From NCBI GenBank assembly GCA_039621445.1, contig CP154954.1, positions 49,703,847 through 49,767,846 on the forward strand: a stretch of 64,000 nt of DNA, given 5' to 3'. Positions within the stretch are counted from its first letter, which is position 1, and each line of letters begins with the position of its first letter. The translations under genes were made by a program, and so were the position numbers. The notes beneath the pieces are model-generated. The model ran no database searches and was not told the DNA's origin. It saw only the letters and a list, made by a program, of their open reading frames with translations. Source of the DNA: Euglena gracilis. Its lineage: Eukaryota. This document shows positions 8,836 through 41,840 of this stretch, piece after piece.

Positions 8836-11820
8836 TTAGGCGGCCGAATTCGCACTTAAGCTTTTTTCCTTTTGATGCGCGCAATTGCGCAAATTTACGA
8901 TTTTTTTTGTAACCCCTGGGACCCTGTACCCTGACACCCAGAACACGATTTAAGAACTGTTACACCCCTGTATTGGAGGGGATTAACTCCCAGTAGTTTG
9001 GCATGCATGCTGCAGACCGAGTGACACGAAGAGGGCTGATGGTGAGACTGGTGCTGTTGTACATCAAACTGGAGAGAGGCATACACCCCTTGTAACGATA
9101 CTTGGAAACGGTGCTGAAGTGCTGGCTAAACTGGCTTGGACACTGCCGCCACCGGTGAGAACACACGGAGTCTCACTAGATAACAAAACCACAGACAGAC
9201 AGACTACGTGAGCCAGTCATCACGCAACTGACGTGTGTTTATGGGCGCAATTGCGCAAATAAAAACAAATGTGTTTGATGCGCGCATTTGCGCAAATAAA
9301 ACGTAAAACGATGATGTTAAAATGACGTGTTGGTGGGCGCAAATGCGCGCACCAACACATTTGGTGGTGTGCGCATTTGCGCAAATGCGCGCACCAACAC
9401 GTTTATGTTTACTTGCGCAAATGCGCCCACAAACATGTACTTTTACTTTCTATGTTAAAACACACCAATGAGGACCATGACCCTACGAGGTTTAAAAACG
9501 TGATGGGCGTGTTGGTGCGCGCAGTTGCGCAAATAAACACCATTACGTTGGTGCGCGCATTTGCGCAAATGCGCAAATAAAACACTTTATACACCGTTTC
9601 AAAATGATGTTTGTAGGAGCCATAGAGCACACAAACAAAGTTGTGTTTACTTGCGCAAATGCGCGCATCAACACACATCAGTTGTGTGATAACATCTCCT
9701 CCTCTGTGACAGCTGGCGAACGCAACTCCTCACGTCAACCAATGATTTGCGCCACAATTACATGCTGATGAAATTTGTGGTGAGAGGTGGTGTGGAGTGT
9801 TCACTGGAACACGGCATGTGACTGGCCAAAATTTGCCTGTCTCACGTGTGTACATTTGCACTGCTGTTACCCGGCCCGATCGGCCTGTTGTTTTGGCGTC
9901 ATCTGTTTGGCAGTTAAACGTCATGAATTGATGACATGCAAACGACCTGTGACTGTTGGACACCTTTTGTGTAACAGGACTGCGTTACAAGAAGACAAAA
10001 TTTGGCACCCGAAATACCCGGGACGTGTCGGGCCGGAGTCCGTTTTACGGTTTTTTCTGCCATTTTTCCCTTGAAAAATGTAAAAAACACCGGTTTTTGT
10101 GCATAATTTAGGGGGAGTGGGTCCCACCACTTTGATGCACGTAATCCAGTGGTAAAGCTTCAACACTTCCTGGCACCCAAAGTAACGGGTGCTTGAGGGC
10201 TACCTCTCTCCAGCTGCCGGTTGCCATGCACTGGCACCAAGTCGTCCCCCCAGCCTTACACCCCGGTTGCGGGGTATAACGCGGTCGCTGTGGTGGGTGT
10301 CGTTGCACCGGGGAGGTCGATGCTGGCCTGTTGGGTGCTGAAGCATCAGCAGCTGATGGGGCTGCAGCAGCAGAGCCCAGGCCGCAGGTCAGCGGTAGGG
10401 CCCTTGGGACCCAAAAATTGGTGCCGGTGGAGGTGTACCGTTACTGGGTGGCTATGAACCCACCTTCAAGAGATCCTATGTCTCCGTCTTTTGTAGGACC
10501 TGTCAATGGTAAAAAAAAAACGGCACCCTAACACCATATACCGGAGGGACGGTGTAGTCATTTGGGTTGAACCCATTCAGAAACCACTAAGGGTGGCTGT
10601 AGGAGCGCCAAAGGAAGTCACTTATTACTCCCCCATTGGTGGTTTATTTGCGCATTTGCGCGCATCACGTTGTTTTATTTGCGCAAATGCGCAAATAAAC
10701 CAGATGTAAAATGAACAATTTACATCTGTTTTATTTGCGCATTTGCGCCCACAAACAACGTGATGCGCGCAAATGCGCAAGTAAACCACTTCCGCTGTCG
10801 GTGTTTGACGGCTGTGTTTCTGTCACACCGTTCTTATTTGCGTTTTATGGGGGCAAATGCGCGCACCAAACACAAAACATGTTTATGCGCGCATTTGCGC
10901 AAATGCGCGCATAAACATGTTTTGTGTTTGGTGCGCGCATTTGCGCCCATAAGCTTGCGTGGTGACAAACAGTGTGACAAATCCACCAACTGGATGGCCT
11001 GTAGGTCCGTGCCGTCACGGCCTCTTTGTCACACCGTTTATCAACGGCGTCAGATCGTGGGTGCCAAAGCCCAGCACTAGAAGGGCAAAATTGTGTTTAT
11101 GCGCGCAATTGCGCGCATCAAACGCAAACACGTTTGATGCGCGCATTTGCGCGCATCAAACGCAATTTTCTTCGCAGGTTCTTTGCCACACAACTGGTTG
11201 TGTGGGTCCTGGGTATAAGCCGGGTGGGAGACACCCATCCCCTTTATTCCCTTCATTCCCTGCGGACCCCATTTCTTCCCCATCTGCGCTTCCCTTGCCC
11301 AACACCCCGCACTTACCTTCCTTCCCCTGTGTCCCTTCTCGCCGGCTTGGTCACACCACACCCACACCCCCCGGCACTTCCTGCCCGCGCTTTAACAAAC
11401 AGCCCACAAACACCACACCCAGGCGCCGCCAGCAACGCAGTCCGGCAAACACCCAGGACTCACACAGCCGGCAGCTCGGACACACCCGAGGACACAGCCA
11501 CAAAAAGCAACAGGGGCAGTAAAGGTCCCGTTCCTAAGGTGCTTTTTTGCGTTTTTTTCAGGGTGGGCCGGCAGGGTCCCGGGGGTTTGGGCCCACAAAG
11601 TCCTTCCCGACACCCCCAAAAAACACCATTTTTCGCCAAAGTCCCGGGGGTCTCCCAGCCAAAATCAGAATTTCGATCGTTTTTTGCACTCTCTTGTTGC
11701 CGTGTTTTCAAACCCCCCTGACCTTCACAGCCGAAACAGAGCACAATCAAAAAAATCGTGAATTTGCGCAAATGCGTGCATCAAACGAAAAAAAGCTTAA
11801 GTGCGAATTAGGCCGCCTAA
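8836..11820. mobile_element. ~3-kb non-autonomous TIR transposon with many GCGCATTTGCGC/GCGCAAAT motifs
   Basis: ~30-bp TIR TAGGCGGCCGAATTCGCACTTAAGCTTTT / AAAAGCTTAAGTGCGAATTAGGCCGCCTA; flanks ACACCCAC/AGACCCAC; no recognisable transposase. Confidence 0.8.
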
Positions 11821-14023: not shown

Positions 14024-14376
14024 CATACAATTTTTTACCGACCCCTTGGGGGGAGGGGGGGTCACTCCACTTTTTGAAAAACCAGTCAGTCACTTTTTTT
14101 TGGGAAGCCAGTCAGTCACTACCCCACCCCCCCCCCCGGGGGGTCGGCCACCCAGGAAAACCAGCCACTTTCCAGCCACTTAAGGCCATTTTAGGCCAAA
14201 AAATTTTTCCCGGCGCCTTCGGCGCCGGGGTCACTCAAGCCACTTTTGCCCACCCCTGGCCGACCCCCCCCCCCAGGGGGGGGAGGGGGTCTGGGCCCAA
14301 AACCAGTCAGTCACTCTGAAAAAACCAGTCAGTCACCCACCCGGGAGGGGGGGGACAGTGCTTAAAAAATTGTCTG
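14024..14376. mobile_element. MITE, CATACAATT family (AACCAGTCAGTCAC internal motif)
   Basis: CATACAATTTTTTA...TAAAAAATTGTCTG; perfect TSD ATTCTGAC. Confidence 0.88.
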
Positions 14377-15446: not shown

Positions 15447-18173
15447 CTAATGCGCCTCATGCAGGAAGTGCTGGTGGATCTTCTCCTGCAGCAGGCAGCA
15501 GTTCTGCTTTGCGTCGCCAAGGAACATATTCGTGTTCGGCTTGTAGAACACCGGGTTGTCCACCCCCGCGTACCCAGTCGCCATCGAGCGCTTCAGAATG
15601 ATGCACTGCGGCCATGGGACGAACAACTACATGCACGCCAGGACGGTCCTTAACGGAAAAAATTTCCCGTCTCATCACATTCAATGAATAATACATAAGA
15701 AAGATGGACGAAAAGATGGCCATGCAAACAGGCTTCTTTTTAACCCCCCCCCACCCACTCACCCAGCCCGGTGCCGGATCCCCCCAAATCGGGTTGTCTG
15801 AGGGCATTTCCCAAAAAAAATTTCGGCGCTTTGCGCCGAAACCCATACCTAGGCCGGAACCCCCTCCCCCGGGTCTTCTGACTTGGAAAGAAGCGGCAAA
15901 ACGGGTCGACTTCGGGGAGAAAAAAGTGATTTCTGGCATCCTTGGACCATCGCCCATCCACCCAAAATGTCAAAAAATGTGTTTTTCGACTTTTCAATTT
16001 TTGACACCTTGGTCGTTCCTTTGGCCCAAGGGTGGTGGTCCTCAAGGGGCGGTCCTTAAAGAAAAAAAATTCCGTCCCTTGTGGACTGCCCTGATGCATG
16101 CACGGGTATTGCATTGCAATATGAGGAGCAATTTGTTTCAGACCCTGCACAAAACATAACGCGACAGCACCACCGACCACTGGCCGCGCTCAACTGGTTG
16201 CAACAACCAGCGCCAGGCGTCGCCGGACCACACCTTCTGTGCCTTCCAGACCTTGAGGACCGGCATCCCAGCGATGGGGGAGTTGGGGTCGTCCTCGGCG
16301 GCACTGTTGATCGTGTCGTTGGCCCCTGAAAGTGATTGCGTCGGGGAGCTTTGGCAATGCCACGGCGGAAAACATGCGCACCGCCACAATGCAACTGGTG
16401 AGGTGGCCAAGCTTCTTAAAATGGAAAAAAATGGCGGTGCAATTATCGGGTTTGGTTCCAAGCAGGGGTTTTCTTAAGGACCCCCCCGGGGGGGGGGGGT
16501 CCAGCCTCCGGCTGGCAAAAAAGCTGCTGGCTGGATTTGAGCTGCTGGCTGGACCCCCCCGGGGGGGAGAGGGGGGGGGGCCCGGTGCTGGAGGGGGCTG
16601 GGCTGGGCTGGGTCGACGGTAAACAAAATTTCCAATAATTTTTTGCCATTTTCGACATTTTGATGGATGGAGCTAGATCAAGGCTGGGGGGCTGTGATGG
16701 AGGAAGTTGTGATGAGGGGGGAAAATGCAGGGATAGGTGTGCTGGGCAGCCCAGTTGGCTAGTTGGCTGGCCGGCCTGTAGCCGGCTGGCCCGGCCTCCA
16801 GCCGGGCTGGACCCAACTTTATTTCACTTGACCCCCCCGGGGGGGGTGGCTCGCAGCCCGAGTTTGGGCTGCTGGCTGGATTTGAGCTGCTGGCTGGCTG
16901 GACCCCCCCCCCGGGGATGGGGTACCCTCCGGCTTAAGAAAACCCCTGGTTCCAAGGCATGGGAACTCACCGAATGCCCAGTGCCAGCATCTGAATCCTA
17001 ATTCTGAAATTGTCACGGCCGCAACATGAGCGCACATTCCGAACTGTATTGAACCAAATCCCACACCAATCACGAGGCTCACATCGGCGCCCTCGAACTG
17101 GTCGTTGATCTCGTCCATCTCGAACACAATGTCGTACGGGATGTTGGCCTCCGCCAGCAGCACGTTGAGCTGCCCGGGCATGCGGCCCGCGACTGGGTGG
17201 ATGGCGAACAGGGCCGCCCCCAAGCTTTGGACCGGTCCGAACCACACCCCGGCAGTGGACGAACGGAGCGGCTTCTTGTTACCCACCCCGGGGGGGGAGG
17301 GGGGTGCCTTGTGCTCTGGGGTGCCTGCCCACAGCAGGCACACCCCCCCCCCCAGGGGGGGTTGGTTTTGGACCCCGGTGCCTGCCGACCAAGCCAAATT
17401 TCTCTCTTGAAAATGGCCTTTTTCGGGCCCCGGCACCTTTGGCGCCAGGGGGTGTGCTCATGCTTGTGCTTACCGACCAGGGGGGGGGGGAGGGGGGGGT
17501 GGGTGCTATGGGGTGCCTGCCCCTAGCAGGCACACCCCCCCCCCCTGGGGAGGGGATAGGGGTCCGGGCCGGACCCAGAAAATTTTCATTGAAAATGGCC
17601 TTTTCCGGGCCCCTGGCGCCTTCGGCGCCGGGGTCGGGGGGGGGGGGTGCCTGCTAGGGGCAGGCACCCCCCAAAACCCTCCCCCGCCCCCCCCGGGGGG
17701 GGCGGATCGGGTGCTATGGGGTGCCTGCCCCTAGCACCCCCCCCCCCTCCGTGGGGTAGGCACCCGACCAAGCACAAGCCTGGGTGTGCTATAGCACTGT
17801 CCACCCTTTGTCCCTTCCAAGCCTCTCCCACCACCTTGTCCCCCCTCCCCACAAGCCTCCTTATCACCTCCAGTCTCTAAAACCCCCGACGACCAAACAA
17901 TTTCATAACGTTGTTTCACGTGCAACCGTTTGCAGTTCAGGGGGGTTCCACCTGAACATCCTGCCCCATATCCTAAAGTAACAACTCCCCGCAAATCTTC
18001 CAAATCCCACACATCACAACCACTCCCCCCAGCTCTGTGGCGGGCGAGACATCGACGCGGTGCTTGCGCAGGGTCTGGACCATCTCCGCCAGGGGGTACT
18101 GGCCCTGGGCCACCGCCAGGCCGTAGCCCGGGACGATGATGATCTTCTTCGCGTTGACCAGCTCCGAGACCAC
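15447..18173 (-). CDS. NNT: NNT exons 26-29, NADP(H)-binding domain III (18173-~18046; ~17209-17067; 16325-16234; 15605-15447)
   Basis: [43 protein letters not shown] motifs; TAG at 15449-15447. Confidence 0.93.
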
Positions 18174-21100
18174 CTGCGGGTGACCGGCAGGGAGGGGGGG
18201 GGGTGGCAGACACGACGGACGGCGGAGTCACATGGCTCAACCCCCCAACCCCCCTTCAAGCTACACACCCAAACTCCAACCCTGTACTGAACCTGAACCC
18301 TTTCCTGAACCCTGCCCTCTAACTTAAAATGCCACCAGGCAACACCCCTCCAACCCTGCACCCACACCTGGGTTCGTGCGAATGTGGGTGGGAAACGACC
18401 CACCACAAATTAACAAACACATCATGGTCATGGACAGGCACCTATGGTCACTTCCCATTTTGGTGCTCTGGTCGGCCCTGGTCGGCCCTGGTCGGCCCTG
18501 GTCGGCAAATAGTCGGCCATAGGTGGGGGTGCAGAAAAAAATGTGAAGGGATGCAATGATTTTCTGAATTGTCTCGCCAAGATCAAAAGGAAGTGCCCCA
18601 TAAGGCCTCCATTGGCTCCCCAAAAGCAACCAAAATGACCTAAAATGGCTTGAAATAACCAAAAATACCCAAAAACGCCAACAAAATCCACAAAAGATTG
18701 TGAAAAATGACTCAAAATTGCCAAAAGGGCGCAAAATGGCCAAAATTCCATAAAAAATGCTCAGATTGACCCAAATTCGCCCAATATTTGCCAAATCAGT
18801 GACAAATAGCCCCCAAATTAGCAAAAACTGGTCCATAATGGCCAAAATGTGTGTAAAACTGGAGATTTGTGAGGAAATTATCCAAAAATGGGTTTAGTTC
18901 TTCAAAATATACAAAAAAAATGCCAGCATCACCCAGCAACACCCTGTATCGCCCAGCATCGCCCAGCATCGGAACCCCACCTCTGGTCTCCAAAAATCCA
19001 GCATCACCCAGCATCGCCCTGCATCGCCCGGAAATGCGGTGGTTTTCTGGTTGATCAAAATTTCTGTGTCTGCCCCATTTCTGGAGCCAGGGGGGCTACA
19101 TGCAGTTTCAAGGTCTTATTTGTCAGAAAAACACGTTGACTTTTATTCAGTTTTTGCCTGATAATTAAACTTTGTGAAGGATATTTTTGTGTACTAGTTA
19201 CTGTGTTGAGACGGTGTTTGTTGTAATCACAATGCATCCACGACCAGGCACCTAGGCGACAGGGCGGCCGACCAGGCCGCTTCAGTGGTTGGCCGACCGA
19301 AGGGGATGGATGAGGAAATTCGGCAGCTTTCCCTCTGGACAAGCACCCCTTGTTTTTGACATTTCATATATTTTTCATATATTTGACATTTTGTACGCTT
19401 TTGTTTCACACTTTCATATAATTCGATTGAGGCATTGATTTTGATTTGAAAGGGGGGCATTCCATAAAACCTCCCCTCACAAACATAGAAATTCCCCCAA
19501 AACAAGAACACGTGGGATCCTGATATTGCGACAAAATATTGAACTGTTTTTTGAAAGATGGCACATAACAGAAAGCTTCGAAAATAAACTGCGGCCTGAC
19601 ATCTGATTCCCCCAAAAAACAACAAAATAGCAGAAGACAGACACAAATACATTTTTCGGGGTCAATCAGAGGAGGGGTATCGAAACTGGGTGTACCGGGA
19701 AGTTTTCTTGGCGTCGGTGTTTTGCTGAAGCCTGATACTCTTGCTTTTGCTGTTGTTTTGATTTTATTCTATTTTCAAAGCCAAAGCATTCTTCTCTTTC
19801 TCCAACCCCCCAGCACGTCACACCTCGTCCACGTCCACAATGGTGGGCTCCCCCTCGATCGCCATCTGTGGCCCCTTCACGGTGCCCAGCCCGCCGAAGA
19901 TGACGGCCACGATGGAGCGGTTCATGGCGCGGCACATGATCCACGTCAGCAGCAAGCACCCATGGTCACAACGAGTCCCAGACCCAGTCACGCCCGGTCA
20001 TGCCCGGTCATTTCATGAATGCGTGGTCAGCAGGGCCCCACTGGAGCCGATGAGGGACCCGACTATCCCCGCCATCGCCTGGCTGGCAGCTTCCCGGCCC
20101 ACCCCCCCTCTGACGGGGGCTGGCGGGCATGGGCCAGCGTTCCTGGCCAAAACACGCCCACACTTCAACACAATCATGCTGGGGAGGCACGGCCAACTTT
20201 TACAAAAACCAGTCGTGCTTTGTGCAATCACTCCGACCCTCCCCAGCTCACTCACCACCTCCAGATGCTAAAAAGCGAAAAGATATTGCAGAAGGGTTTT
20301 TTTCCTCAAGAAATGATAAGAGTCGACTTCGACTCTTGACGCCATCCAGTATCCAGTGGACATTCTCCCACTTCCCAGTGGTCAGAGGCCACTTGCTGGG
20401 GCCATGGGGTTTGTGTGGGTGCAGACAATTTTGGGGGGACTCCAACCTGTGGGGGGGGGGGTTGGATGCCATTCCTGCACTGAAGGTTTAGCTCAGAGGT
20501 AGCCACAGGGTTGGATGGGAAGCCTTGAAAGGGGGGGTGGGTCGGACCCCCCCTCCCGACACGGGGTGGGTCGGACGCCCCCCTCCTACCTCGAAACTGA
20601 GGAGGGGCCGAAAATTTTTCGATTTCATGGACGGGCAAAGGGCCAGAAATCGGTCAAAAAATCAGAAAGGATCGAAAACGGTCAAAAATCCCTGATTCTT
20701 CTTTGAAAATCGATCCAAAAATGCTCATTTTTTGAAATTTTTTTGAACATTTTTTTGGGGGAATACACCAACACATCAAAAAATTTTGTGCTATTTTTGG
20801 CACCTGTTAAGGCGGGGGGGTGGGGGGGCCCGACCCCCTACTCAACATCGAGGGGGGGGGGGTGGTTCGGACCCCCCCCTACCACCTCACCCCTGGGGGG
20901 GGGGGTCGGGACCAGGTTTTGAATAGTGCTGAGCTCTCAATAAGCGCGCACGCACCCCTTCATTGAGCCCTCCACACATACCAGCCCACTCCATGGAGGG
21001 TACCCAAAGGCCTGCCCACCTGGACCCAAGGGAAAGGGTCATATGGCCCTCAAACTGGAAACCGATCGGGGGTTCTCATTATGTTCTCTGGGATAGTTAT

Positions 21101-24100
21101 TCGAGTGTGCCGGCTGGATTAGTGCCTACGGTTGTGAAAAACATGCGGATATCATAAAACTAGCAAAATTTGAAAGAATCTGGATGGGTGCGTTTTCGGC
21201 TCAAAAACAGTTTTTCTGGGTCCGGGAGGTAAAAAAACATCGTTTCCGGCAAAAAAAATTTTCGATTTTTTTCGACTTTTTTGGCCGAAAACGGCTGAAT
21301 TGAAAAGTGGAAAAAGTGTACAAAATGGCCGAAAATGGCCTAAATTGGCTAAAAAAACGCCCGTATCTCGGGCCAGGCGGGGAGTTGTGGGGAAACCAAA
21401 ATCCCAGTACATAGAGCGTTCCAAGGGCTTCAATTTAGGTATCTGGACATTTCCTTTGATTTTGCATCATTTTCGAAATTTTGGAAACATCGATTTTTTG
21501 ACCCCCCACCCCCTGAAAACGGCCAGAGAGAGAGAGAGAGAGAAATCAGAAGAGAGAAGTCGAACAGAGGGAAAAGTGCACAAAACGGCCATCTGCGCCG
21601 AAAAAGGCCGTATCTCGGGCTAGGCGGGGAGTTGCGGGAAAATCAAAATATCAGTTGATGGGGCGTTCCAAGGGCTTCAAATTAGGTCTCCGGAAATTTC
21701 AGTAGATTTGGCTTCATTTTGGAGATATTTTGAAATTTGACATTTTTTTTGGCCGAAATGGCAGAGTCCAAAGGGGGGGGGGGGCTTATCCAGGGGGGGG
21801 GGGTAAATCCTACCCAGTTTGGACCCCTTCGCGCGTGAATAACTTGGGCTTGGCGGGGAGTTGGGGGTCAAACCCAGGTGATTCGGAAACTAGAAATCCA
21901 GTCGCTCGCGACTGAAAAAAAAATGCCAGGAACGGGGCCGGGATCATGGTGATAATCCGTCGGTCTCCTGGTGGCCCCGACCCGGGGGGGGGGAGGGGGG
22001 GGTCGAGGGGGGGGTTTCGCCGGGCGTAAGCTTCGCTCTTACCCATAAAGGGATAAGAGCTCAGCGACCCCCCCCCTACCACCTACCTCAATACCGAAAG
22101 GCTTCCCATCCAACCCTAACCCTGGGTAGCCAAGGAGGGAACCCCCATCCCCGGGGCAACCCCAGGCAGGGGATGGGCAGCAGCATGTTGTTCTCCAGCA
22201 TGAACCCTGGGTAAGGAACGACCCGAGATCACACCAGCCAGAATGGCCAGATGACCACCTCTCCAACAATGCCCCATATCCACTTAACTCCCTTCCCCCC
22301 AGGGCTCTGGTTTGCTGAATCTGACGAAGGGGGGGGACTTGGAAAAAATCATAATTTTCAACATTCTTGTGCTCAACATAAGCCTTTGCCGTACATTTGA
22401 AGCGGAAAATGTCATTGTCCACAGCGCCTTGGATCGGGGATTCAGACGGGGCCTTAAATTGGAGGTTTTATTTTACCTTGAGTCATGGCCAGTTTCCCCC
22501 CCCCAGGGCCCCCAGGACCCCTTCTGCTCAGCACAGGACCCACTGACCGTGGAGTTCCGGGCCAGGGGTTTTTTTTAAGACCGGGGGGGGGGAGGGGGGT
22601 CCCCCCCACCCCCCCGCCCCCCTGGGGGGGCCCCCCGGGGGGGGGAGGGGGTCCTGGGGGACACACAAAAAATGGCCGAAAAAGCGCAAAACGTGCTAAA
22701 AAAAGAATTTTTCGGCGCCTGCGGCGCCGAAAAGTATATCCCACCCCCCTCCGGGGGGACCCCCCCCCCAGGGGGGGGAGTGCGTCCGGCGGACCCACCC
22801 ACCCTACGCCCCCTCCCCCCCCCGGGGGTCCAAACTTAAAAAATCCCTGTTCCGGGCACCTTCGGCGCCCGCTACCGGGGGGGGGGGGGCTACCACCCCC
22901 CCCCCCGGACCCCCCCGGCCTTCAAAATAACCTCATCTTGTGGGACAAAAATTTTGCCTAAGAGTTGCAATATGCATTTTTCCACATTATTTCTACCCCA
23001 CAGCTTTTTGCACAAGATATGGCATCTGATTCCGCCGCTTGCTTTGTTCTTCGGAACAAAACCCCCGTTCCACGATAGGCTGCTGCCTGCCCCCTGTGCG
23101 GGTGGACGGGTGATGACTCGTTTGGGAACACACAGCCATTCTCCGGGTTATGCATTGCGGTGTGCGTACGGCGGCGTCGTGGTCCTTGTCGTCGTCGAAC
23201 TCGGTGTCCACCGGCAAGGGGCTCGCGGCGCACATCACACACCATGAGCAGTGGTGCTATTGTTCGTGGACCACCCGTCCGGGACGGGGCTGTCACGAGC
23301 CCCTCGTGGATCCAGAGCACAGCCTATTTTTATTTTTTCGACCCGGTCTGGAGGTACCCCCGTCCCCGACCGGGGTTTGAACCTGGGTCGCTCGCATGGA
23401 CCGCACTGCGGGGGACCACTAGGCCGGGGGGTAGGGGCAATGGTTGTACGTGCCGTTCACTCCTCTTTCCGCCCCGGGCGGCGGTGGTGCCGTGATTGTT
23501 GCGTCAGAAAGAAAGCGGGTCAGAAAACTAAGGTTTATCGTAATCCGGGTCCCAGCCGTTGCGGCAGACCCGGGCGATGAAGGCCTGGAGGCCCTTCCAG
23601 CCCCCCCGATGACCACTTTGTGGTCCTGTCAGGTAAGGTGCCGAGAGAGGCAGAAGAAACACCACTCCTCGGCGTCGCACATGCCCCGCCGCACGCCACA
23701 GTACCCACCGACCGTGGAGTTCCGGGCGCCCGCTACTGGGGGGGGCTCCCCCCCCCGGACCCCCCCGGGCGTCAAAATAACCTCACCTTGTGCTACAAAA
23801 TTTTTGCCAGAAAGTAGCAGGAACCCCCAGGCCCCCCCCAGGACCCCCCCAGGACAGTGTCCTGGGGGGGGGGGGGAAACTGGCCATAAGCGTTGGACCT
23901 TTGTTCGGTCGGTCCAACCTCTGACACCGACAGTACTGTGCGTTTCGGGGAAACGATCAACGTTTTGGGTTGGGGCGGCGCACCCTCTGCCACGAGGGCC
24001 CACCCGGAGTAGGAGTTGAGCACCGTGATGACGACGGGCATGTCGGCGCCGCCGATGCTGTCCGTCAGGTGCCACCCCTCGAAGAACGCGATGGCCGTGG

Positions 24101-27100
24101 CGGAGCCCAGCATGATGAGCCTGGGGGAGAGGGGCCGGGGAGGGGAGGGGGCCACCGCTGGGGTGGCATTGCCGCCACAATTCTGTGAATGCAAAAAATT
24201 GACCCCCCCCTCCAGTAGGGGTTGGTCAGGGTTCTGACAGTCACGCTGCCCGACTGTCCAACTCACCGGACCAGGGAGTGGTGGAATGACCGCGGGGGAA
24301 GGGGAGGTCCAGATCCGTGGCAGGCAAGTTTGGACTTCCGGGGAAGCCTGCTTTTCAAGGGTTGGCCACGGGGGCTCACACGCAGCAGTGCACCCGCCCA
24401 CACAACAACACGGCCGCCACACCCAAACTGCATCTCCGGGGGCTGCGCCATGTACGCCACGAACAGCCCCGCCAGCCCCAGCCCCATCACGGAGTTGAGG
24501 AAGTCCCGGCCGGGGATCTCCAGCGCGTCCGACTTCCAGTTGCCGTTCAGCTTCGCGAACGCGACCAGCGAGCCCGTGAACGTCACGCCACCGATGACGC
24601 TGCCCAGGAAGATGGCCACCCGCTGCGGGCAGAGCTCGGCACTTGCGACGGGGGGGGGGGGCGCTGCTGTGTTTGATTTGCACCGGCTTTCTTCTTGCAC
24701 GGCGGCACGCATTTGGAGGCCGTGGGGAAAACTGACAGGGTCAGTTGTGCCCCTGCGGCTGAACCAATGCTGGGAGATCAAAACCCAAGAAAAAAAAGAC
24801 CAAAAAAGGAGGCAATAAGCGGACCTCAATTAAACAGTGAAACTGTTGACGGAAAGAAAGGCGGGGGGCAGTCAGGATCACGTTGTGGCTGGCGCTGGTC
24901 TGATGTTGCCTGTGTCAGTGAGGGCAAAGGTGTTCACCTGTGAGAAGAAAAAATAAATTAAACAATACAATAATAATGATAATCCCCCCTCGTAACAGGG
25001 CAGCAAATTTAGGTTTGCTTTTCTTTCCATCAAATTCAAGTACCCAGCACTCCCAGCACAACCCAGCACTCCTGCAATGCAGCTGAAGCCAGGAACATTT
25101 GGTTGCATTTATTACAGTGCCTTTTCGAAGAAAGATGAAGCTCTTTGTCCAGTGGGTCCCAAACAGGCTTCTTTTTAAGACCCCCCGGGGGGGGGTCCCC
25201 CCCACCTACCCAGGGTGGCGTGGGACCCCCCACCCCAAAATCGGGCCCGTTAGAGGCAATTTTCAAAAATTTTCGGTGCTTCGCACAAAAAGGTATACCC
25301 GGCGCCTCCGGCACGGGACCCCCCCCTTAGATGCACTTTGGCTTCTGTCTGGTTTAAGGCCTGGCGCTGCACAGACATTCATTTAGTGTGGTTCACAAAA
25401 TACGTGTGAACCACAAATTTTTTTTTGGTGTCCACAGGTGAACCACAAAATTTTTTTTGGTGTCCACATGTGAACCACAAATTTTTTTTTGGTGTCCACA
25501 AGTGAACCACAAAAAATTTTTTGGTGTCCACAAAAAAGTTTGTTGCCACAAATCTTGATTGAGTATCGGAAAAAAATTAAGTTTTACAACTAAAAGCGGA
25601 TTGATCTTGAAAAACCTCAGCCAAATTGTCACCTTGGCTCCGGCTCAATCCATAAATTGTGGCAGCGAACCACACCCCCAGGCTTGTATGGGAATCTCGG
25701 AGGGGGGGGGGGGGGGGGGACCCCCCTCCAACCTCAAATTTTTGGTCACCGAATCTCCTCAGTTTCCGGGTCGAAAAAATCGAAAAAATAGAAGCAAAGG
25801 GGTGTGGGGGGGGTATGGGAGGGGGTCGCTGACCTCTTAACCTTTCAAAAAATTGCTGTAAGTAACCGTAAATTGCAGGGGTGTAACTTTCAAATTTATG
25901 AAATTTGCAATGCCAGTCTTTTCGGACATCCATTACGTGCAAGTCCCATAAAGAGCTCAACACTATTCAAACCTGGTACCCCCCCAGTTTCGGAAGGGGG
26001 TCCCCCACCCCTCCTCCTCTGCGGAGGAAAAAAAAATCTTCCGGCGCAAAGCGCCGGGTGTGTATTTTAGGACCCTCTTGAGGCTCAATATGAAAATTTG
26101 CACCCAAATGCATGGGTTCCGGGCCAAAACCGGGGGGGGGGGTCGAAAACACACACATTTTCGGTTCAAAAAAAGTTCTTCCGGCTCCGGGAAACATCGT
26201 TTCGGGCAAAATTTTTTCGATTTTTTTTCGAATTTTTCGACCTTTTCAACCCAAAAATGGCTAAATCAAAACAGGCCAAAACTGTCAAAATGGCCCAAAT
26301 TGGCTGAAAAATGGCCGTAACTCGGGCTGGGCGGTGAGTTGCAGGAAATCAAATACCTTTCCTTTGACTCCCCACCATTTTCGAGAACTTTTGGGGAAAT
26401 CGATTATTTGACTCAAACGTTTGGTGTCCACATGTGAACCACAAATATTTTTTTGGTGTCCACAGGTGAACCACAAAAAAAATTTTGGTGTCCACAGGTG
26501 AACCACAAATTTTTTTTTGGTGTCCACACGTGAACCACAAAAAAATTTTTGGTGTCCACAGTGAACCACAAAATGTCAACCTTGGTGTACCACACTAAAT
26601 GAATGTCTGGCGCTGCATTCCGCTTCTGGCCCTTTCTTCGGAGCAACTCCCAATAATTGTCCGACCCCATATTCACTGGGACTTCAAACTTCCGTTTTGT
26701 GTTTCCCTTGCCCTTCCCCTCCCCCTTGGGTTTTCGGCTCCCCTTTCTGGCTGCTGCTGCTGCTGCTTCTGTTGCTGCTCGATTTCGTTCCCAAGAGGTG
26801 CTCGGGGTGGTAAGGGGCCTACTCCTCCACTGCGTGCCGGCGGGTACCGGTGTCACCTGCAGTGGGCCCTTTTTACCACCACAGCCCGCCGGGTCCCCCC
26901 GGGAAGGAAATGCTTTCCGCTGCTGCTTGCTGGGCTGCTGCTGTTGCTGCTGCTTCCCCGACCCTTTGGACCCACCCTGGGCTCTTTGCTCTTGGTGTGG
27001 TTCCCAGTCGTTGTGTTGCTGTCTCCCGTTGCTGTTCTCAATGGGATGGGCATACGGGCATGAGGTGGTCCTCCACCAGCATCCCATCCCATACTTGCAC

Positions 27101-30100
27101 ATGAATTGTTCCCCCGTCGGTCTGCCCCGCCCTCCCCATGGGGAGCCCCCCTCTGTGGGCTGCACTTTTTGGGTGTACCCCCACCAGGCCCGGGCCGGAC
27201 CTCCCCCCCCCCCCGAGGGTCCGGCCCGGGCCCACCCCCCCCAGGGGGGGGGGGCAGGAGACCCCCCCCCGGGGGGTCTCCTGACATAAAAAGATGCCTG
27301 GTCCCAAATCAACTGGTTTCATTCTCTGTGACAGCTGCAACCATAAAATTCAGCCGGGGCCACTTGCGTCCGTCTCCCTGCGGTTGGGGGTGGCAGGGAA
27401 GTGGGGGGAGGGAGCGAACGGAGCGGCCCCGCCCACACACCTCCTCCACGAACTGGGCGAACGCCACCACCACGGCCGCCAGCCCCACGACGGAGTGGAA
27501 GCCGGCGACCAGTTGGGGCAGGGCCGTGATCCCCGCCAGAGGTCCGTTTTAAATCCCGGGGGGGGTGTCCATCCCTGCATCCATCCCCCAGGGGAAGGCA
27601 AGGGGGGGGGCGTACCCACCCGGCCTGACCATCCCCCCAAGGGGGGGGGGATGGCCGGCTGGGACCGACCCGCCCCACCGCGGGTCACCGCTAAAGAACC
27701 TCTGAGCTCCACCCGGTGGGCGATGCAGAGCCCGATGGCCCCGCCCGCCGTCATGGCTAACCCCAGTTGCAGGTACGTCAGGGGGCTCAGCGTGCTGCAG
27801 GGGGGCAGGGCGTGGTGAGGCCAAGGATGGGCAGATCCAATATTGTCCTCAAACCTGCCCATACAGCTTGTTCACAAGCTATTTGCCCTCTTGTCCCTGC
27901 GCCGCATTTTCATTTCAGGGTTTTAAACCCTGTGGTGGTTTTGTGACACCACATTCCGCAAACCCACACGTAGGCCAGGGGGGGGGGAATAATTGATATC
28001 GGAGGCCTTCGGAAAAATTGCGGAAAAATTGCGGAAAAATTGCGGAAATTGCGGAAAAATTGCGGAAAAATTGATATCGGGTATACACATTTCTGTCTGA
28101 GGGGACTTAGAAATTTTTCAATTGTGAGGTTCAGAACACCGCAACACCCACGTCGATGCAGGCGAGCACAAATCAACACGCTTGATGTTTTTTGCACAGG
28201 TGGGACGCACCCAATTCTGTAACCAGTGGTGCACCTGTGAGAAAAATTGGTAAACTGGGGGGAAAAAAACAACAAAACACAATGGCACACCTATTGATCC
28301 ATTTGAAGAATGGCTTGAACTCATTGCATCTTCCATCTTCGGTGGTGGGGGAAAAATTCTGCGGGAAAAAAAAATGGGAAAAAATTGCGGAAAAATTGCG
28401 GAAATTGCGGAAAAATTGCGGAAAATTGCAGAAAATTGCAGAAATTGCGGAAAATTGCGGAAATTGCGGAAAAATTGCGGATCAATTCCCCCCCCCTGCG
28501 TAGGCATACGTAGGCGCAAACACTATATTCGGTTGAGGAGACCTAACATGATGCCGGTATCCAATTGCTTGGCCTCATGAAGGAAAATGGGCCGGTTCCT
28601 ATAGCACATGGGGTTGTACCCCCCCCCCCCGACAATGCATGCCCAGCACACCGGGAGAGGCTGACGAGGGTGGTCAGGACGCCGACATAGATGCCCACCT
28701 TGCCCAGGCTGTTGCCGAGGCGGGACGTCTCCTGGGTGGACAGCCCCGCGATGGACAGGATGCAGAACAGGGAGGCCACCAGGTACGACAGCTGTGGGGA
28801 GGGGGAGGGAAGCGGTGGGACTGGCGCCACCGCGCAACAATGGCCGTGGCGCAGACTGCCGGGTGGCCGCGCTCAGCAGGTATCGCAGTCTTCAGCAACT
28901 TGAGCCAGACCAAAAACGAAACCTGCGTACAAATGGGTGCAACCCTGCCTCCTGGGCGTAGATTCACTTGGGGGACATTTTACCCTGGGATAAAACCCAC
29001 CCAGCCACTATTTTTTTTTGAAACTACCAACCCACAACCCCCCTCCCAAAGGGGTCAAACCACCCACCCACCCACCCACCCACCCCCTGGGGGGTTCCTC
29101 CAGGGGGGAGTGGCCCTGGGTGAGTGGGTCCTAACCACTCACTTTTCCCCGAAAATGGCCAAAAACCGCAAAAAATGCTAAAAATAGCACCTTTTCAAAA
29201 TTTTTGGTCCCTTTAGCGCCAAAAAGTATATCTCAGCCCCCCTGGGGGACCCCCGGGGGGGGATCGGCCAGACCTACACATCCTACCCCCCCCCCCGGGG
29301 TTCAAGACAAAAAAACCACTGGCCCCAACACACCCACGCACTCTCGAAGACCCACCTGGAGAGAGGGGATCTGTGTCAAGCTCCTGGGACAGCCGTACCT
29401 TGGTGACTCGTGCCAACAAAACAAAACAAAACAGGATTCCCGTTAGAAATCAGCAGGAGAAAGACTGAAAATGGTTGCTAAAAATAACTTCGTCACTACT
29501 TGTCATTGTGTGGCTGCGAGTGTGTAGTGCCTGCATGGGTTGATATTTTTGGGAAATGCTTCTGCTTCAAAAATAGGATGAACTCCACAAGGGCTGGAAT
29601 TTCAATGGGACATTGCTTTGTTTTTGCCCAGACATAGCGAGGTGCAATGATGTGCGTGGGGGAGAAAATGATGGCCAGGGAAGGGCAGTCATCCCCAATT
29701 TTTGGTCTCCGGTGGGGTCCGGTGGGATCATACAATTGCTTACCGACCCCCGGGGGGGGGGGGAGGGGGGTCACTCCACTTTTTTAAAAACCAGTCAGTC
29801 ACTCATTTTCAAAAAACCAGCCAGTCACTACCCCCCCGGGGGGGGGGTCGGCCACTCAGAAAAACGGCCACTTTCCAGTCACTTTAGGCCATTTTAGGCC
29901 CAAAAAATTTTTCCGGCGCCTTCGGCGCCGGGGTCACTCAAGCCACTTTTGCCCACTCCTGGCCGACCCCCCCCCACTCTGAAAAAACCAGTCACCCACC
30001 CCCCCAGGGGGGGGGGTTGGTCAGTGCTTAAGCAATTGTCTGGGTGGGATCTGGTGGCTGTCCTTGCCTGCTGATGGCAAGGTAGGTGAACGATGGATCT

Positions 30101-30404
30101 GAACGAGACCGGGAACGTTTTCATTCAAATCAGTAAGAGTAATCAAAAACAGTTAAAGACAGTGGACAAAAGTTGGCAAAAGCACCAAAAAATGGCAAAA
30201 AATCAGCAAAGGTAAAATCAGCAAAAATGGTTAGCAGCAGCAAAAAATGGCCGAAAGTCGGTACAATCAAAAGCAGCAAAAAAAATGGCCGTGAGTCGGG
30301 AAAAATGACCAAAAGCAGACAAAATCATCAAAACACAGTAAAAGGTCAAAAAATTCTGGGGAGAACTGCCACTGACACACACGCACGCGCGCACACACAC
30401 ACAC

Positions 30405-30503
<99 letters not shown>

Positions 30504-33500
30504 GAGTCCATGCCCTCGAAACCCCCGACCAGGCGGGCAGTGCAGTAGAGGCCCGTCCACGCCGCGGCGGGGATGACCCACAAGCCATTCCACTCCTCTG
30601 ACACCTTGTCCCCCTTCTTGAACATGTCCTGGGCCATGCCGGGGGAGAGAGTGCGTGTGTGCGGGCGTGTGCAGCCTTTTTGTGCTGAATGCTGTGTGCC
30701 CCTATTGCTCATGGGCAAGCACCTATAATTGACCCCCCAGATTTTCGCCATTTTCGGCTATTTTCGGCCAATTTCCGCCAATTTCGGTCATTTTCAGCCC
30801 TTTTTGTCCTAAAGGTTTGAGGTAAATTCTTTCATACCAACAATGCATTTTGATCATTCAGTCAAGATGCAAGCAGTAGTGACAAGCTAACGCATCCAAA
30901 GAGGTCCGTTTGGAATGGGTGCTCAGGGATTAAGGAGGTCAAAGAGTTTTTTGTTGCAATATGCAAATGCAAGGTTTTGGGAATAGGCTTATTTTTTCCT
31001 GTCAGAGAGGCTCTTGTCCACTTTGGTCTTTTTTACGCTTCATGAGAGTGGTTGGCACATGACGTATTAACCACAATGGCAACACCAAACCTGGTGCTTT
31101 TCTCTTCAAGCCTCTTGGCGTGGATGCTTTTTACAAACAATTTCCGCTATTCCAACTTGACACCCCAAGCAACATTGTTTGATGGTGGCACTGTTAGATC
31201 CCATCCAATTGTGTGCAATAAACCTAATGCAGGAATCACACCTTTAACGGAGAAAAAAAAGCTTCACATACTTTGCCTGGTTGCACCTTGCCACCACAAT
31301 TTTCTGAAATGTCATTGAAACCATCGGCTTTGGCCCAAATAACCCATTCGGAGGTGGTTCTTTGAGCAACATGTGTTCCACGGTCAGGCATAATGGCAGG
31401 AGAAGAGAGGCATGACTTCAAAGAAGCCTTGATTGAGCGACAGAATAAAAGCAAACAAACATGCGATCGGCCCATAATGTTGAAATGTGGGCATCAAATG
31501 TTCTCACCCAATTGTCCAATGTCTGCATCTTGTTCAACATCGCATCTTGTGCAGCATCTAACCCCCCCCACTTATAAACCCCCCGGGTTTATAAGGTCCG
31601 GTTTGGTTGGTCGGCCGAAGGGGGGGGTTTATAGGTGGGGGGGGGTTTATAGGTCCCGGAATTGTTGGTGAAAATCTGACCCCCAAAAATGACCCCGGAA
31701 ACCCCCAAAATTGGCAATTTTTGACAATTTTGGTCAAAAAGGGCATTTTTGATGATGGTCGGTCTCAAAAAAATTGCCAAAAATCAGTTTTGGGGTGGTT
31801 TGTGGCCGAAAAAAAATCGTCCCCGGTGGCTTTCATTTTTCCCGGGGGGGGGGGTCCCGGTTTGGTTGGTCGGCCGAAGGGGGGGGGGTTTATAAGTGGG
31901 GGGGGGTTACATCTTATCCAATATCTACATCCATTGCATCAGCAATCACTGCATCTTGTCTGGTGTGTACATCTTGTCCAATACCTGCATCCTGTCAAGA
32001 TCTTAATCTTGTTCAGCATCTGCATCTTGTCCAAAAAGCAACCAAAATGACCTAAAATGGCTTCAAATAACCTAAACTTGGCGAAAAACACCAACAATAC
32101 CACAAAAAAAAGTGAAAAATTCACCAAAATGGCGCAAAATGGCCAAAAATGCCATATTGACAAATGTACTCGTATTGACCCAAATTAGCCCAATATTTGC
32201 TAAATCAGTGCAAAGTATCCCCAAAATTAGCAAAAATTCATCCAAAATGGCCAAGATGAGTGTAATACTGGAGATTTGTGGAGAAATTATCCCAAAAATG
32301 GGTTTAATTCTTCAAAATATACAAAAAGAATGCCAGCATCGATGCCATCAAAACATTCAGCTTTGGCCCAAATAACCCTTTCAGAGGTGGTTCTTTGAGC
32401 ATGTGTTGCAGGGCCAGGCATAATAACAAAAGAAGAGAGGCTGCACAGAGACAAGAATCAGTTGCACTGAAAATTGCCCCTCTGGGAAAAAGAAACTGTC
32501 AGGCAAAAAAAAAAAACTCGAAAAAATCTTGCAACAAATTTTTCTCATTTTCGGCCATTTTCGGCCATTTTCGGCCATTTTCGGCCATTTTCGGGACCCC
32601 CACCTATAGAGCCCAAAATTTCATTTTCGGCCATTTTCGGCAATTTTTGGCAATTTTCGGCCATTTTTACTATAAGTGCTTGCTCATGGGCAATGGTTCC
32701 GACTGGGCTGGGTGACTCCAGACAAAAAATTTTCGCGGAGAAAAGTTGCCAGAAAGACAAACACACCGGACGCAAGGGCACACACAACGCTCATACCAGC
32801 ATACGGCCGGTGATGTGGAACCCACCAAAAATGTTGATGGACGCCATGAAGACGGAGGACAGGGCCAGCACTTGACTGGCATTGGTTGGGTACCAGCCAC
32901 CACCCGTCAACATCTGCGGGACGGATCAGTTAATTTTAGCCGCGGCGCTGACCGGCAAAGCTGCATGGAACACATCCAAATATGCCACTATCTCTGGCTA
33001 TCTCTGTTGGCCCTCACAAAGAGAGGGTAAGCACTGGCTAGTGGATCAACTAATTGACTGAATCGTCGATAAACTAGGCAATAAAAAAGACAACTGACTG
33101 ATTGACAAATTGAAGAGGTTCATCCTGGTGTATGCAACTATTCGAAGGGCTAAAAAATAAAAAATCCCATCTGTTTTGTTGTAAGTTGTTTCGCTCTGCA
33201 CGGGCAAACCACACACATGCACCTACACCCTCTTTGACCTCCATCCCCTCCCCTGCAGGCACTGTTTTGGCTGAAAAAGAAAGACAGAATGAAAACAAAA
33301 TCCTGTCCAATCATCAACCACTCTCTTTCACCAGTAAAAACTATTTGTCAAGCACACCCCACACCATCCACGTGCGCTGATGCACACACGTACGCACGTG
33401 CGCATGCTCATACACATTCACACAATGCACAATGGATCACACCAAGCCCCCAACGATAACACTTCCGGATATAGCGTTGGTGACGGACATCAGCGGGGTG

Positions 33501-39549: not shown

Positions 39550-41840
39550 TGTGTTGTGTGTGTGTTGTGTGGGTGTTGTGTGGGTGTGGGGTGTGTATGG
39601 GGAGGGGCGAGGAGAGCTTGGAGTTGTGTAGTGCAATTCTGAGGGAGATGATGTAGACACACCGCAGAGATTGCCAACACTGGTGACTGGGGGGATCAGC
39701 ATGAGAAAAGCTTGGGAAGTTGGGAGGGCATGGTGGGCAGGGTGGGGACAAAGCCACCAGCAGGGGGGGGGGCGAAACCAAGCTTCTTTTTAAGACCCCC
39801 GGGGGGGGAGGGGGGGGTCCCTATCACCGACCCAGTGTGGCGCGGCACCCCCCCCCGGGGGGGGGGGGGGGGGGGGGTCCGGGGACCCCCCAAAATCGGG
39901 CCCGTTAAAGGCAATTTTCAAAAATTTTCGGCGCTTCGCGCCGAAAAGGTATACCCAGCGCCTCCGGCGCGGGACCCCCCCCCCCGGGGGGGGGTCCGGG
40001 CCCCGACCCACCCACCCACCCCCCTCCCCCACGGGGGGGGGGGGGGGGTCTGGTGACTTAAAAAGAAGCCTGAACGAAACGTAGACCTCGAAAAAAAACG
40101 ACACCAAAAAACACACACACACACACACAAAAAAACGGAAACTGCATGTAAAATCCCTTAGCTCCCCCAAGACGTACACTTTCTGCTGAAGAGGACTTAA
40201 TAAAATTTTCAGCTCCGTCAGGGCAAATTTTAAATTTCGGACAAAAATATGCAGCTTTGTTGACCAGAAAAATGCATGAATGACAAAAATTGACAGAATT
40301 TTGGGTCTTGGGGAGAAATTGGGGGGTGAAACAAATAAATTTTTGTTTTCGAAAAAATTTTCCAGCAAAAATGGAAAATCGCCAGAAAAAAAAACACAAA
40401 TACGCAAAAAAACCACAAAAAAATGCAAATATTGCCAAAAATCGAAAAACGCAAAAAGCCCTCCAAAAACACGTTTGCGTCCCTCACCCGCAACCAGTGG
40501 AAAGCATCGCGGAGGTGGAGGATGGCTGACGGGGTACTGGGGTCAGCCCACAGGCCATACCTTTGGCGGTAGCGATGGCGGAGAGCCCTGCCACCCCGGC
40601 ACCAATGACGAGCACCTTGGCAGGCTGGACCTGTGCCCCAGAGGCGGAGTGGTGCGGGGGGGGGGGGGGGCGTGTGACGGATGCAGCAAGGTGCCTCCTC
40701 GATGTCCCCAGTTGTCCAAGTGGCCGCGCACAAATATAAATGGACACTTTTTGGATCAGTGGAGGACCCTCCCCAAAGCCCCCAACAATTACTTTATTGG
40801 TTTGGCACCTCCATCAGCAGAGCCACTTCTGAAAGCAATTAAAAATGGCAGGACATGAGACAGAAGGCCCTTCCCAAACGTGCTAAGACCCACCCAGGCT
40901 TCACAAATTTGTGATCAAAATAAGGACTTGGCGTGTCCTTTAAATCTACCACCGTTCCACTGGCCCCATCTGAAAACCGTACACTTCACCAACTTTCGGC
41001 TGGTACCAAAGACCAGTGCAAAGTGCAAAGTTCGGGTACCAAAGAGCTTACATGAACTGACCCTTGAAACCCTGTGCGCTGGGTCTGGCGGTCATCCCAA
41101 GAGATCACGCCTCTGAAGGAGATCACAAGGCACATTCACAAATGCAGGTTCATATTTGCCACACCAAAGTGGCAGCCCAAACATAATTTGGAGGATATCT
41201 GCCACCATTATCGATGTCGAAAAGGATTACCTAAAATCATCCAAATAATGAACAAAAAGAAAAATAAAAAATAGGCGAAAATGCAATACCTTTCCCGCCG
41301 CTGTGATCGTTTGCTTGAAGTAACGGCCGAAGCTGTTCGCAGCCTCGATGACCGCCTTGTAGCCCGCGATGTTGGCCATCGAGCTCAGTACGTCGTACAC
41401 TTGGGACCGCGTGATGCGGGGGACGCAGTCCATCCCAGGCGGCCAAGCACCGGACTATGGGATGGGTTGGGGCCCGAGTTTGGGGGTGTCAACAGCACAG
41501 AAAATAATTGAAATTTTTTGGGGCAATGCCACGGACAAAGATGCAAAGATTGGCACACGGCCATGGCCGGATGCGAACACTGTCACTTTCGCTCGCTGGA
41601 ACCGCTCCAGCAGATCCTTGTTTTGCCCTGAGGCCAGAGCTACGCTGTTGGGCTGGCTCTCATTTCTCAATTTTGGGCAGCCCCTCATCGTCGGTATCAG
41701 AAGGGTGTCCCTAAAGAAACACATAAAAACAGGCTTTGGTTGGGTTACATGCATCTATCTACGGATGCCGCTGACAGGAGGCGGAAAGCCGTTTGTGCAC
41801 GCACGCGCGCATCTCTTGGCGCATGCATGCGCATGCCTGC

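Follow-up and report, generated by a model that had tools for sequence, protein, structure and literature searches.

An 81-nt nonconventional intron framed by an 8-bp repeat in a Euglena NNT gene, probably derived from a miniature transposable element

How can a gene stay functional when one of its exons is broken by DNA that carries stop codons, and where does such DNA come from? The question is raised by the NAD(P) transhydrogenase (NNT) gene on the minus strand of a 64-kb stretch of nuclear DNA from a Euglena gracilis-like organism (contig CP154954.1; the whole stretch is referred to as the window, and positions are counted from its first letter). In this gene a 73-bp insert lies between two perfect copies of an 8-bp word, and exactly 81 nt, corresponding to the insert plus one copy, are missing from the RNA and not from the DNA. 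Euglenid genes contain nonconventional (NC) introns, and it has been suggested that these may originate from elements resembling MITEs, that is, miniature transposable elements with inverted repeats (PMC3935182; again PMC6221363, PMC11170887, PMC12621601, PMC12501133). The reading favoured here, to which we give a probability of roughly 0.7, is that a 73-bp non-autonomous cut-and-paste element hit an NNT exon at CTGCTGAC, duplicated 8 bp of its target and is removed as an NC intron.

The 8-bp word reads GTCAGCAG on the plus strand, at 19945-19952 and 20026-20033, and CTGCTGAC in the sense of the gene, with the sense layout ...GCC-CTGCTGAC-CACGCATTCATG...CATGGGTGCTTG-CTGCTGAC-GTGG... around the insert. 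Read in frame, the insert contributes two TGA stops (...LLTTHS-stop-NDRA-stop-PG...) and splits the conserved SSGALLT|WIMC. Its two ends are complementary in the sense RNA, where the arms CACGCAUUCAUG (20025..20014) and CAUGGGUGCUUG (19964..19953) form 11 of 12 pairs, nine of them Watson-Crick and two G.U, the single mismatch being a C.U at the third pair. An earlier note on this DNA, made from the letters alone, had described the perfect 8-bp repeat around a 73-bp insert with an 11/12 end stem, as well as an in-frame TGA within a broken SSGALLTWIMC motif; the coordinates, the pairing and the broken motif were all reproduced, and a second TGA was found. In folding calculations on the isolated intron this terminal helix belongs to the minimum free energy structure, with pair probabilities of 0.98-0.99 for a 9-bp core and ~0.6 for the outer CA/UG pairs, and its probability is ~0.5 once 30-35 nt of exon are added on each side; splicing of the 81-nt intron may rely on the 9-bp core. 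Of the three mismatches in the inverted repeat, two are G.U in the sense RNA and would be A.C in the antisense; this argues weakly (about 0.07 by arithmetic) for RNA-level selection. A search of 19700-20300 against Rfam gave no matches at E<=1.

The host gene was recognized through a search with one exon translation, which retrieved, besides NNT proteins from further euglenids, the 931-amino-acid protein eukprot:EG_transcript_2419 (P0001, 98% identity), and Pfam found PNTB and AlaDh_PNT_C domains in the exon-bearing open reading frames (ORFs). P0001 is placed on the minus strand from ~45740 to ~17140 in ~27 exon blocks, almost all at 100% identity, and its alignment shows a 27-residue gap at the insert, the corresponding 27 codons being missing from the transcript protein. 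Sequencing data were aligned over 17000-24800 and comprised two runs of raw RNA reads (X21 and X24), a run of contigs taken by guess to be RNA (X15) and a deep DNA run in contigs (X3). The joint 19944->20026, in which 81 nt are skipped with an ambiguity of 8, occurs in ten X21 reads (3+7; nine start places), in one X24 read and in one X15 contig. The joined form is present in no contig of X3, a count to be read with the reservation that contigs can miss rare variants, and one X3 contig with a single-copy depth of 175 spans 19346-20000, that is, one copy of the repeat together with 48 nt of insert sequence. Position 20006 is covered by 13 X21 reads, all of which have a base other than that of the window and at least three further differences, and therefore come from other loci, so that unspliced RNA of the NNT locus was not seen among them. 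The earlier proposal that the 81 nt must be removed, with cDNA named as the check, is borne out by the joint in three runs and by a transcript protein without the 27 codons.

These data also bear on the possibility that no splicing of the insert takes place, the window copy being a dead or variant allele that carries a transposon while the mRNA comes from a near-identical copy free of it. Some features of the locus would suit such an explanation. Exon 2 of NNT (~43660 and ~43567, minus strand) is shorter by a single base in two separate G runs when compared with the transcript protein, giving two frame shifts; these are probably indel errors of the assembly, a damaged copy being the other possibility. 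At exon 17066-17208, 271 reads of X21 and 76 of X24 agree with the window as far as 17203, beyond which they diverge into one consistent sequence, with a depth several-fold above that of other NNT exons; this points to another NNT paralogue, expressed more highly, that has this exon sequence in common and could supply reads. The window also departs from all four aligned runs at 24448, where it has C and the RNA contig, the DNA contig and most raw RNA reads have T, corresponding to Ala in the window and Thr in P0001; this is either a strain difference or an assembly error. Nevertheless, none of the 13 X21 reads at 20006 has the base of the locus itself, X3, with ~70-175x over single-copy sequence, contains the insert-bearing form and no joined contig, and the X15 contig that bears the joint (3041 nt) is identical to the window in two exons, with no mismatches over 19821-19944 and none over 18045-18170. 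An origin of the mRNA from another copy is accordingly considered very improbable, and the 81 nt are taken to be removed from the RNA of this locus.

The borders of the removed piece constrain the way in which it leaves. Among the 25 NNT intron junctions that were mapped with P0001 and sorted by eye from the junction alignment into conventional and NC introns, 17 have a GT...AG register (their sliding by 1-5 nt results from the AG|GT consensus) and eight do not. The spliceosome thus acts on this transcript, and it might be envisaged that the 81 nt form an 'intermediate' intron or one that the spliceosome removes despite non-canonical borders. The repeat permits nine cut registers for the 81-nt intron, none of which gives GT/GC-AG or AT-AC, and the end-to-end helix with spacers of 3 and 5 nt is a hallmark of NC introns; a spliceosomal origin is for these reasons scarcely tenable. 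In all eight non-GT-AG introns of NNT the helix starts at +4/-6 when they are placed in the N3/N5 register.

For the 81-nt intron this placement corresponds to a 5|3 split of the repeat, as the earlier note had assumed, with the exon ending in ...CTGCT, the intron (20028..19948) running from GAC-CAC to TTG-CTGCT and the next exon beginning with GAC. The consensus of NC junctions and the geometry of their helix have been described (PMC3935182, PMC4770533, PMC6221363), and the CA-TG pairing has been reported as the most conserved part of these introns (PMC3935182). Among the nine registers only the 5|3 split gives CA at +4,+5 and TG at -7,-6 together with an exon that starts in a purine and has C at its position +3, each of the two cuts falling between a pyrimidine and a purine (Y|R). 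The junctions therefore have a pyrimidine at the 3' ends of exon and intron, a purine at the 5' ends of intron and next exon and C at exon +3; since both sides are copies of the same repeat, these features count as three independent ones and not as five. The ends are drawn together through the pairing of +4,+5,+6 with -8,-7,-6 that characterizes NC introns, with C-G at +4/-6 and A-U at +5/-7, apart from a C.U mismatch at +6/-8, beyond which nine more pairs follow. A genetically defined rule for NC introns, 5'-N3CDG-/-CH'GN5-6|R, has been published, from which 38.8% of NC introns depart (Nomura et al. 2025, PMC12501133), and the +6/-8 mismatch places the NNT intron in that fraction. The spacer part of this code is found here only in the 5|3 register, which has a 3-nt donor spacer, a 5-nt acceptor spacer, a purine at the exon start and pairing that extends beyond the motif; a register conforming to the strict code or to the spliceosome was ruled out over all nine. 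We infer that the cut lies at 5|3, the sole register compatible with the rule for the spacers (N3 ... N5|R) as well as with the junction consensus Y|R..C. The products are identical in all nine: each register yields the same mRNA and the same full-length circle junction, so that sequencing of excised ends, which had been proposed for fixing the register, cannot do so if the intron leaves as a circle. Other NC introns have been reported to leave as full-length circles (cited in PMC11282704, PMC12501133), and removal later than the conventional introns is a further trait of the class. Among the joints listed for the aligned runs, a listing that leaves aside 1137 others, no back-joint of such a circle occurs.

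The arrangement is rare within the window. At the fixed spacing of the two copies, 8-nt identity occurs at 19 of 63,900 positions, chiefly in homopolymer runs, and an end stem of at least 11/12 at 59 of 63,927, and the two coincide only at the NNT insert. A blind scan over all spacings for a looser pattern (pairing of at least 10/12, with G.U permitted on either strand) averages 12.6 matches per window in first-order Markov (Markov-1) controls; the weight of the observation comes from the coincidence of the structure with a stretch independently shown to be removed, by protein alignment and by RNA. These frequencies are relevant to the view that the intron is an old NC intron whose 8-nt repeat is coincidental or kept by selection on the spacers. 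Direct repeats are indeed frequent at Euglena introns, 84.4% of those of E. agilis being 'slidable' (PMC12501133), and an imperfect inverted repeat would fit an old age. However, the other seven NC introns of NNT slide by 0-1 nt only and match at 18 of 56 duplication positions, which is background (2.37/8 in a slid-window control), compared with 8/8 here, for which arithmetic gives a chance of 4^-8 at any one fixed site. Spacers have been reported to be free in sequence (N3, N5), and NC introns that were knocked in or made synthetically are spliced within foreign exons (PMC12501133), so that no selection for a repeat is known and the repeat is better read as history than as function. An old intron is on this evidence judged improbable.

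The window was also scanned for inverted-repeat pairs beginning with CA and ending with TG, and their flanks were compared for a possible target-site duplication (TSD). Among the 190 pairs with at least 11/12 matches, the outer 8-nt flanks are identical at 8/8 in nine, at 7/8 in one and at 6/8 in two, the others centring on one or two matches; with displaced flanks, 8/8 was obtained in 1 of 570. When elements were counted by the length of the perfect flanking repeat, nine have 8 nt, and the lengths 5, 6, 7, 9 and 10 gave 2, 0, 1, 0 and 1, respectively, whereas 50 Markov-1 control sequences gave 0-2 matches for any terminus. A tenth perfect element, at 22563-22849, had been dropped by the low-complexity filter and was recovered in a separate scan. 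The perfect elements measure 287-2137 bp, have terminal inverted repeats (TIRs) of 12-20 bp (e.g. CAGGGGTTTTCTTAAG, CATACAATTGCTTA, CAGACATTCATTTAGTGTGG), and together with the near-perfect ones are non-coding, fall into several families and are located either within introns of NNT or beyond the gene. Two are nested, 25372-26609 lying within 25164-27300, and 14024-14376 shares 85% identity with 29729-30042 across 253 nt but not its flanks, as expected of mobile copies. These siblings are thus mobile, non-autonomous DNA elements with 8-bp TSDs. Long ORFs with CCCH zinc-finger-like motifs were also observed at 26416-27318 and 59352-60056 (both on the minus strand), with zf-CCCH recognized by Pfam only in the second; the first lies within the element 25164-27300 and may represent part of a gene that was captured or repeated.

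The insert resembles these elements in the length of its duplication (8 bp) and in its CA...TG tips, and it can be linked more closely to one of them. Its end CAAGCACCCATGG... agrees at 12/16 and 15/24 positions with the TIR of 30716-32682, an element of 1967 bp, a score equalled by 2 of 500 shuffles, the matching end being the 3' end of the insert read as reverse complement (CAAGCACCCATGGTCA...). The terminus CAAGCACC is the TIR tip of the same element and is also found at the element ends 19340 and, as reverse complement, 55272-55279; moreover, 10-nt tandem units just inside the TIR are common to the insert and to 30716-32682. The prediction that the stem would abut both repeats as in a TIR element is in this way backed by ten perfect and two near-perfect siblings, by a shared terminus and by a partial multi-copy signal. 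This signal comes from a single position, 20006, within the 10-nt units, where X3 has a summed depth of 70,800 with 61 contigs that carry a variant base, compared with 69-175 for nearby single-copy contigs, and it suggests some hundreds of related copies of part of the insert. Further copies of 19953-20025, for which a genome search had been suggested, are accordingly supported for a part of the insert by genomic reads, and the search for them drew a blank within the window and for the full length.

Several results weigh against a transposon origin and against the NC assignment that goes with it. The strict code asks for CDG and CH'G, and here positions +4..+6 read CAC and -8..-6 read TTG, no register having both motifs; single changes in CAG or CTG have been reported to abolish splicing of a test intron (PMC12501133). 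Compared as DNA, the two arms form a weak inverted repeat, with 9/12 matches and 11/20 across the first 20 nt, and the folding energy of the whole molecule is no better than that of shuffled sequences (z 0.27; z 0.2 to 0.8), the terminal helix being the only meaningful feature of the intron fold. Among the 80 ORFs submitted to Pfam, taken from the longest of 199 with at least 120 amino acids, no transposase was found, only the NNT domains and the CCCH zinc finger. The single-copy depth of the X3 contig over 19346-20000 implies that the insert's left 48 nt may occur only once, and no second full-length 73-bp copy was found, the window holding only chance matches of 10-14 nt and no other array of 10-nt units. 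Finally, the other seven NC introns have no residual duplication, so that any generalisation depends on an assumed decay.

Some of these results would be accommodated by double-strand-break repair, in which filler DNA is captured at a staggered or microhomology break, an 8-nt repeat arises without a transposase and the ends pair by luck. This mechanism was put forward for a young gapC intron with an 8-nt repeat (PMC4770533), and both the 9/12 inverted repeat in DNA and the missing full second copy are compatible with it. A helix of 11/12 flush with both copies would nevertheless be met by chance at only ~59/63,927 at a fixed position, and repair leaves unexplained the ten other CA...TG elements with exact 8-bp duplications, the CAAGCACC terminus shared with one of them, the multi-copy nature of part of the insert and a target that conforms to nTnnnnAn. 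Break repair is for these reasons held to be unlikely, and insertion of a mobile element is preferred.

The sequence of the target points towards a particular type of element. In the ten siblings, with the NNT insert excluded, T at duplication position 2 and A at position 7 fill 12 half-sites out of 20 (p = 5e-4 relative to base composition), and the exon sites of the other seven NC introns have T2/A7 in 8 of 14 half-sites (p = 0.007); GTCAGCAG has both and so fits nTnnnnAn. In hAT elements the TIR tip has the motif YARNG. The tips of the insert, CAAGC and CACGC, do not fully fit it, and among the siblings CAGGG... fits and CATAC... does not. A hAT-like affiliation of the insert and its siblings, suggested by the target letters, is therefore offered as a lead and not as a membership. 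The ends of the NC introns were also compared with the elements of the window; 14 of 16 gave nothing significant, the exceptions being the 3' end of the 81-nt intron and that of the 176-nt NC intron 646|647 (27532-27707, minus strand), which resembles the TIR of 22563-22849 at 17/24 positions (0 of 500 shuffles). The interior of intron 646|647 has G/C-run motifs common to several elements of the window, and it may be an older element-derived intron.

The features discussed are collected in Table 1. Between a 1777-nt conventional intron and the 2111-nt NC intron a 30-nt micro-exon was observed at 22178-22207 (minus strand), the joint 20066->22178 being backed by RNA. The two neighbouring NC introns (20066/22178 and 20029/19947, minus strand) lie ~40 nt apart in the mRNA at near-identical 8-mers, CTGCT|GAT and CTGCT|GAC, a recurrence that may reflect a preferred target word. 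An (AC)64 microsatellite occupies 30375-30502, directly after the 5' splice site of a conventional intron.

Table 1. Coordinates of the insert, its repeat, the adjoining exons and the resident elements of the window.
Feature	Position	Strand	Remarks
Upstream (gene sense) repeat copy CTGCTGAC	20026..20033	-	In the 5|3 register CTGCT (20033..20029) is exonic and GAC (20028..20026) is the 3-nt 5' spacer of the intron
Downstream repeat copy CTGCTGAC	19945..19952	-	CTGCT (19952..19948) is the 5-nt 3' spacer
Start of next exon, GAC	19947..19945	-	Purine first, C third
73-bp insert, putative miniature TIR element	19953..20025	-	CA...TG termini; no coding capacity
81-nt NC intron, probable 5|3 register	19948..20028	-	Length removed from RNA
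5' arm of helix and inverted repeat, sense CACGCATTCATG	20014..20025	-	Begins at intron +4
3' arm of helix, sense CATGGGTGCTTG	19953..19964	-	Finishes at intron -6
Three 10-nt subterminal tandem units CCCAGTCACG, CCCGGTCATG, CCCGGTCATT	19983..20012	+	
Rest of short upstream exon	20034..20066	-	38 nt including the retained CTGCT; 2111-nt NC intron upstream
Downstream exon	19821..19944	-	Ends VDVDEV; next comes a 1650-nt conventional GT-AG intron
Elements with perfect TSD	14024-14376, 16463-16948, 17459-17782, 22563-22849, 25164-27300, 25372-26609, 29729-30042, 30716-32682, 47459-47908, 52035-52406		
Near-perfect elements (7/8 and 6/8)	8853-11803, 39779-40072		

The history proposed for the NNT insert would begin with a miniature element, characterized by CA...TG at its ends, inverted repeats that are short and imperfect, and subterminal repeats of 10 nt, which would have landed in the exon at CTGCTGAC, duplicating its 8-bp target. 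In the pre-mRNA the ends of the element would pair, and the resulting helix would juxtapose the two junctions; the NC pathway would then cut 3 nt 5' of the helix and 5 nt 3' of it and rejoin the exons. As 3 + 5 = 8 is the length of the duplication, the element and one copy of the target (81 nt) would leave together, restoring the frame ...SSGALLTWIMC..., and the gene would stay functional because the NC-intron pathway removes the element from the pre-mRNA. We know of no description of the enzyme machinery of nonconventional splicing. The insertion would be recent. A metagenome search for the orthologous site, which does not inform on this point, retrieved 53 loci, none of them a euglenid genomic orthologue, with best identities of 65% for the whole query and 78% for residues 1-40, all uninterrupted.

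A wider reading, which is put forward tentatively and with less than even odds, is that the NC splicing code as a whole may be the footprint of one transposon superfamily, with CAG...CTG as the TIR tips and the spacers of 3 + 5 nt as an 8-bp, hAT-like TSD (nTnnn|nAn). In that case NC splicing would amount to a 'precise excision' at the RNA level of an element and one duplication, and each new insertion, in either orientation, would be spliceable from birth, which would account for NC introns being the majority of introns in Euglena. Such an origin would also hint that the splicing machinery co-evolved with a transposon system or derives from one, and the 81-nt NNT intron would be a young and intact witness of the process.

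Several known systems invite comparison. The closest are the euglenid NC introns themselves (Milanowski et al. 2014, 2016: PMC3935182, PMC4770533; review PMC11282704), which likewise have no GT-AG borders, a helix that draws the ends together, CA at +4,+5 with TG at -7,-6, Y|R junctions, C at exon +3 and TSD-like repeats, whereas the +6/-8 pair of the NNT intron is a C.U mismatch. The CAG/CTG ends of NC introns have been termed TIRs and their junction repeats TSD-like (PMC11282704), and in 2013 the authors of PMC3935182 remarked that transposable elements had yet to be identified in the genomes of euglenids. Intron 4 of gapC in E. agilis ACOI 323 (PMC4770533) is, similarly to the NNT intron, an NC intron with an eight-nucleotide direct repeat, which has been read as a sign of recent gain, and it has been shown to be absent in other strains; its authors favoured double-strand-break repair, whereas for NNT the siblings with 8-bp duplications and TIRs in the same window favour transposition. 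The code of Nomura and colleagues (PMC12501133) shares with the NNT intron the 3-nt 5' spacer, the 5-nt 3' spacer, the purine at the acceptor start, pairing beyond the motif and 'slidable' introns, and differs in its letters, CDG/CH'G as against CAC/TTG; the sections of that report consulted make no mention of an 8-bp TSD.

Outside this class, the introners of Micromonas, Aureococcus, dinoflagellates and Fritillaria (PMC11282704) also convert an exonic TIR element with its TSD into an intron, one copy of the TSD being removed with the element and the frame restored. They use the spliceosome, however, with splice sites provided by the element or the TSD, whereas removal of the NNT insert appears to be directed by the helix and involves no splice-site dinucleotides. 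Among DNA transposons, hAT Hermes (PMC10368747) has an 8-bp TSD of the form 5'-nTnnnnAn-3', short imperfect TIRs and subterminal repeats, features that have counterparts at the NNT insert, where the TIRs are putative. Merlin elements of E. gracilis (PMC8101967) also have 8-bp TSDs, but their TIRs carry a terminal 5'-GG-3' in place of the CA seen in all elements described here. The term hAT does not occur in the sections of PMC3935182 consulted, nor do hAT and an 8-bp duplication in those of PMC11282704. In the literature searched, resident Euglena elements with CA...TG TIRs and 8-bp duplications were not found, nor was a link of the 3-nt and 5-nt spacers to an 8-bp duplication or a hAT-like target preference, although supplements and further papers may contain them.

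Since the idea of a MITE origin, repeats of TSD type and, for one young NC intron, a direct repeat of 8 nt have already been published, the NNT intron is best regarded as a new and very clean example of a described class, one that supports a published and so far unproven idea on the origin of NC introns. What sets this locus beside the known systems is that both sides of the MITE hypothesis are held in one 64-kb window, namely an exonic element that retains an intact 8-bp duplication and is removed from RNA and a dozen matching non-coding elements, and that the sum 3 + 5 = 8 ties an experimentally defined spacer rule to the length of a duplication, which makes the hypothesis testable genome-wide.

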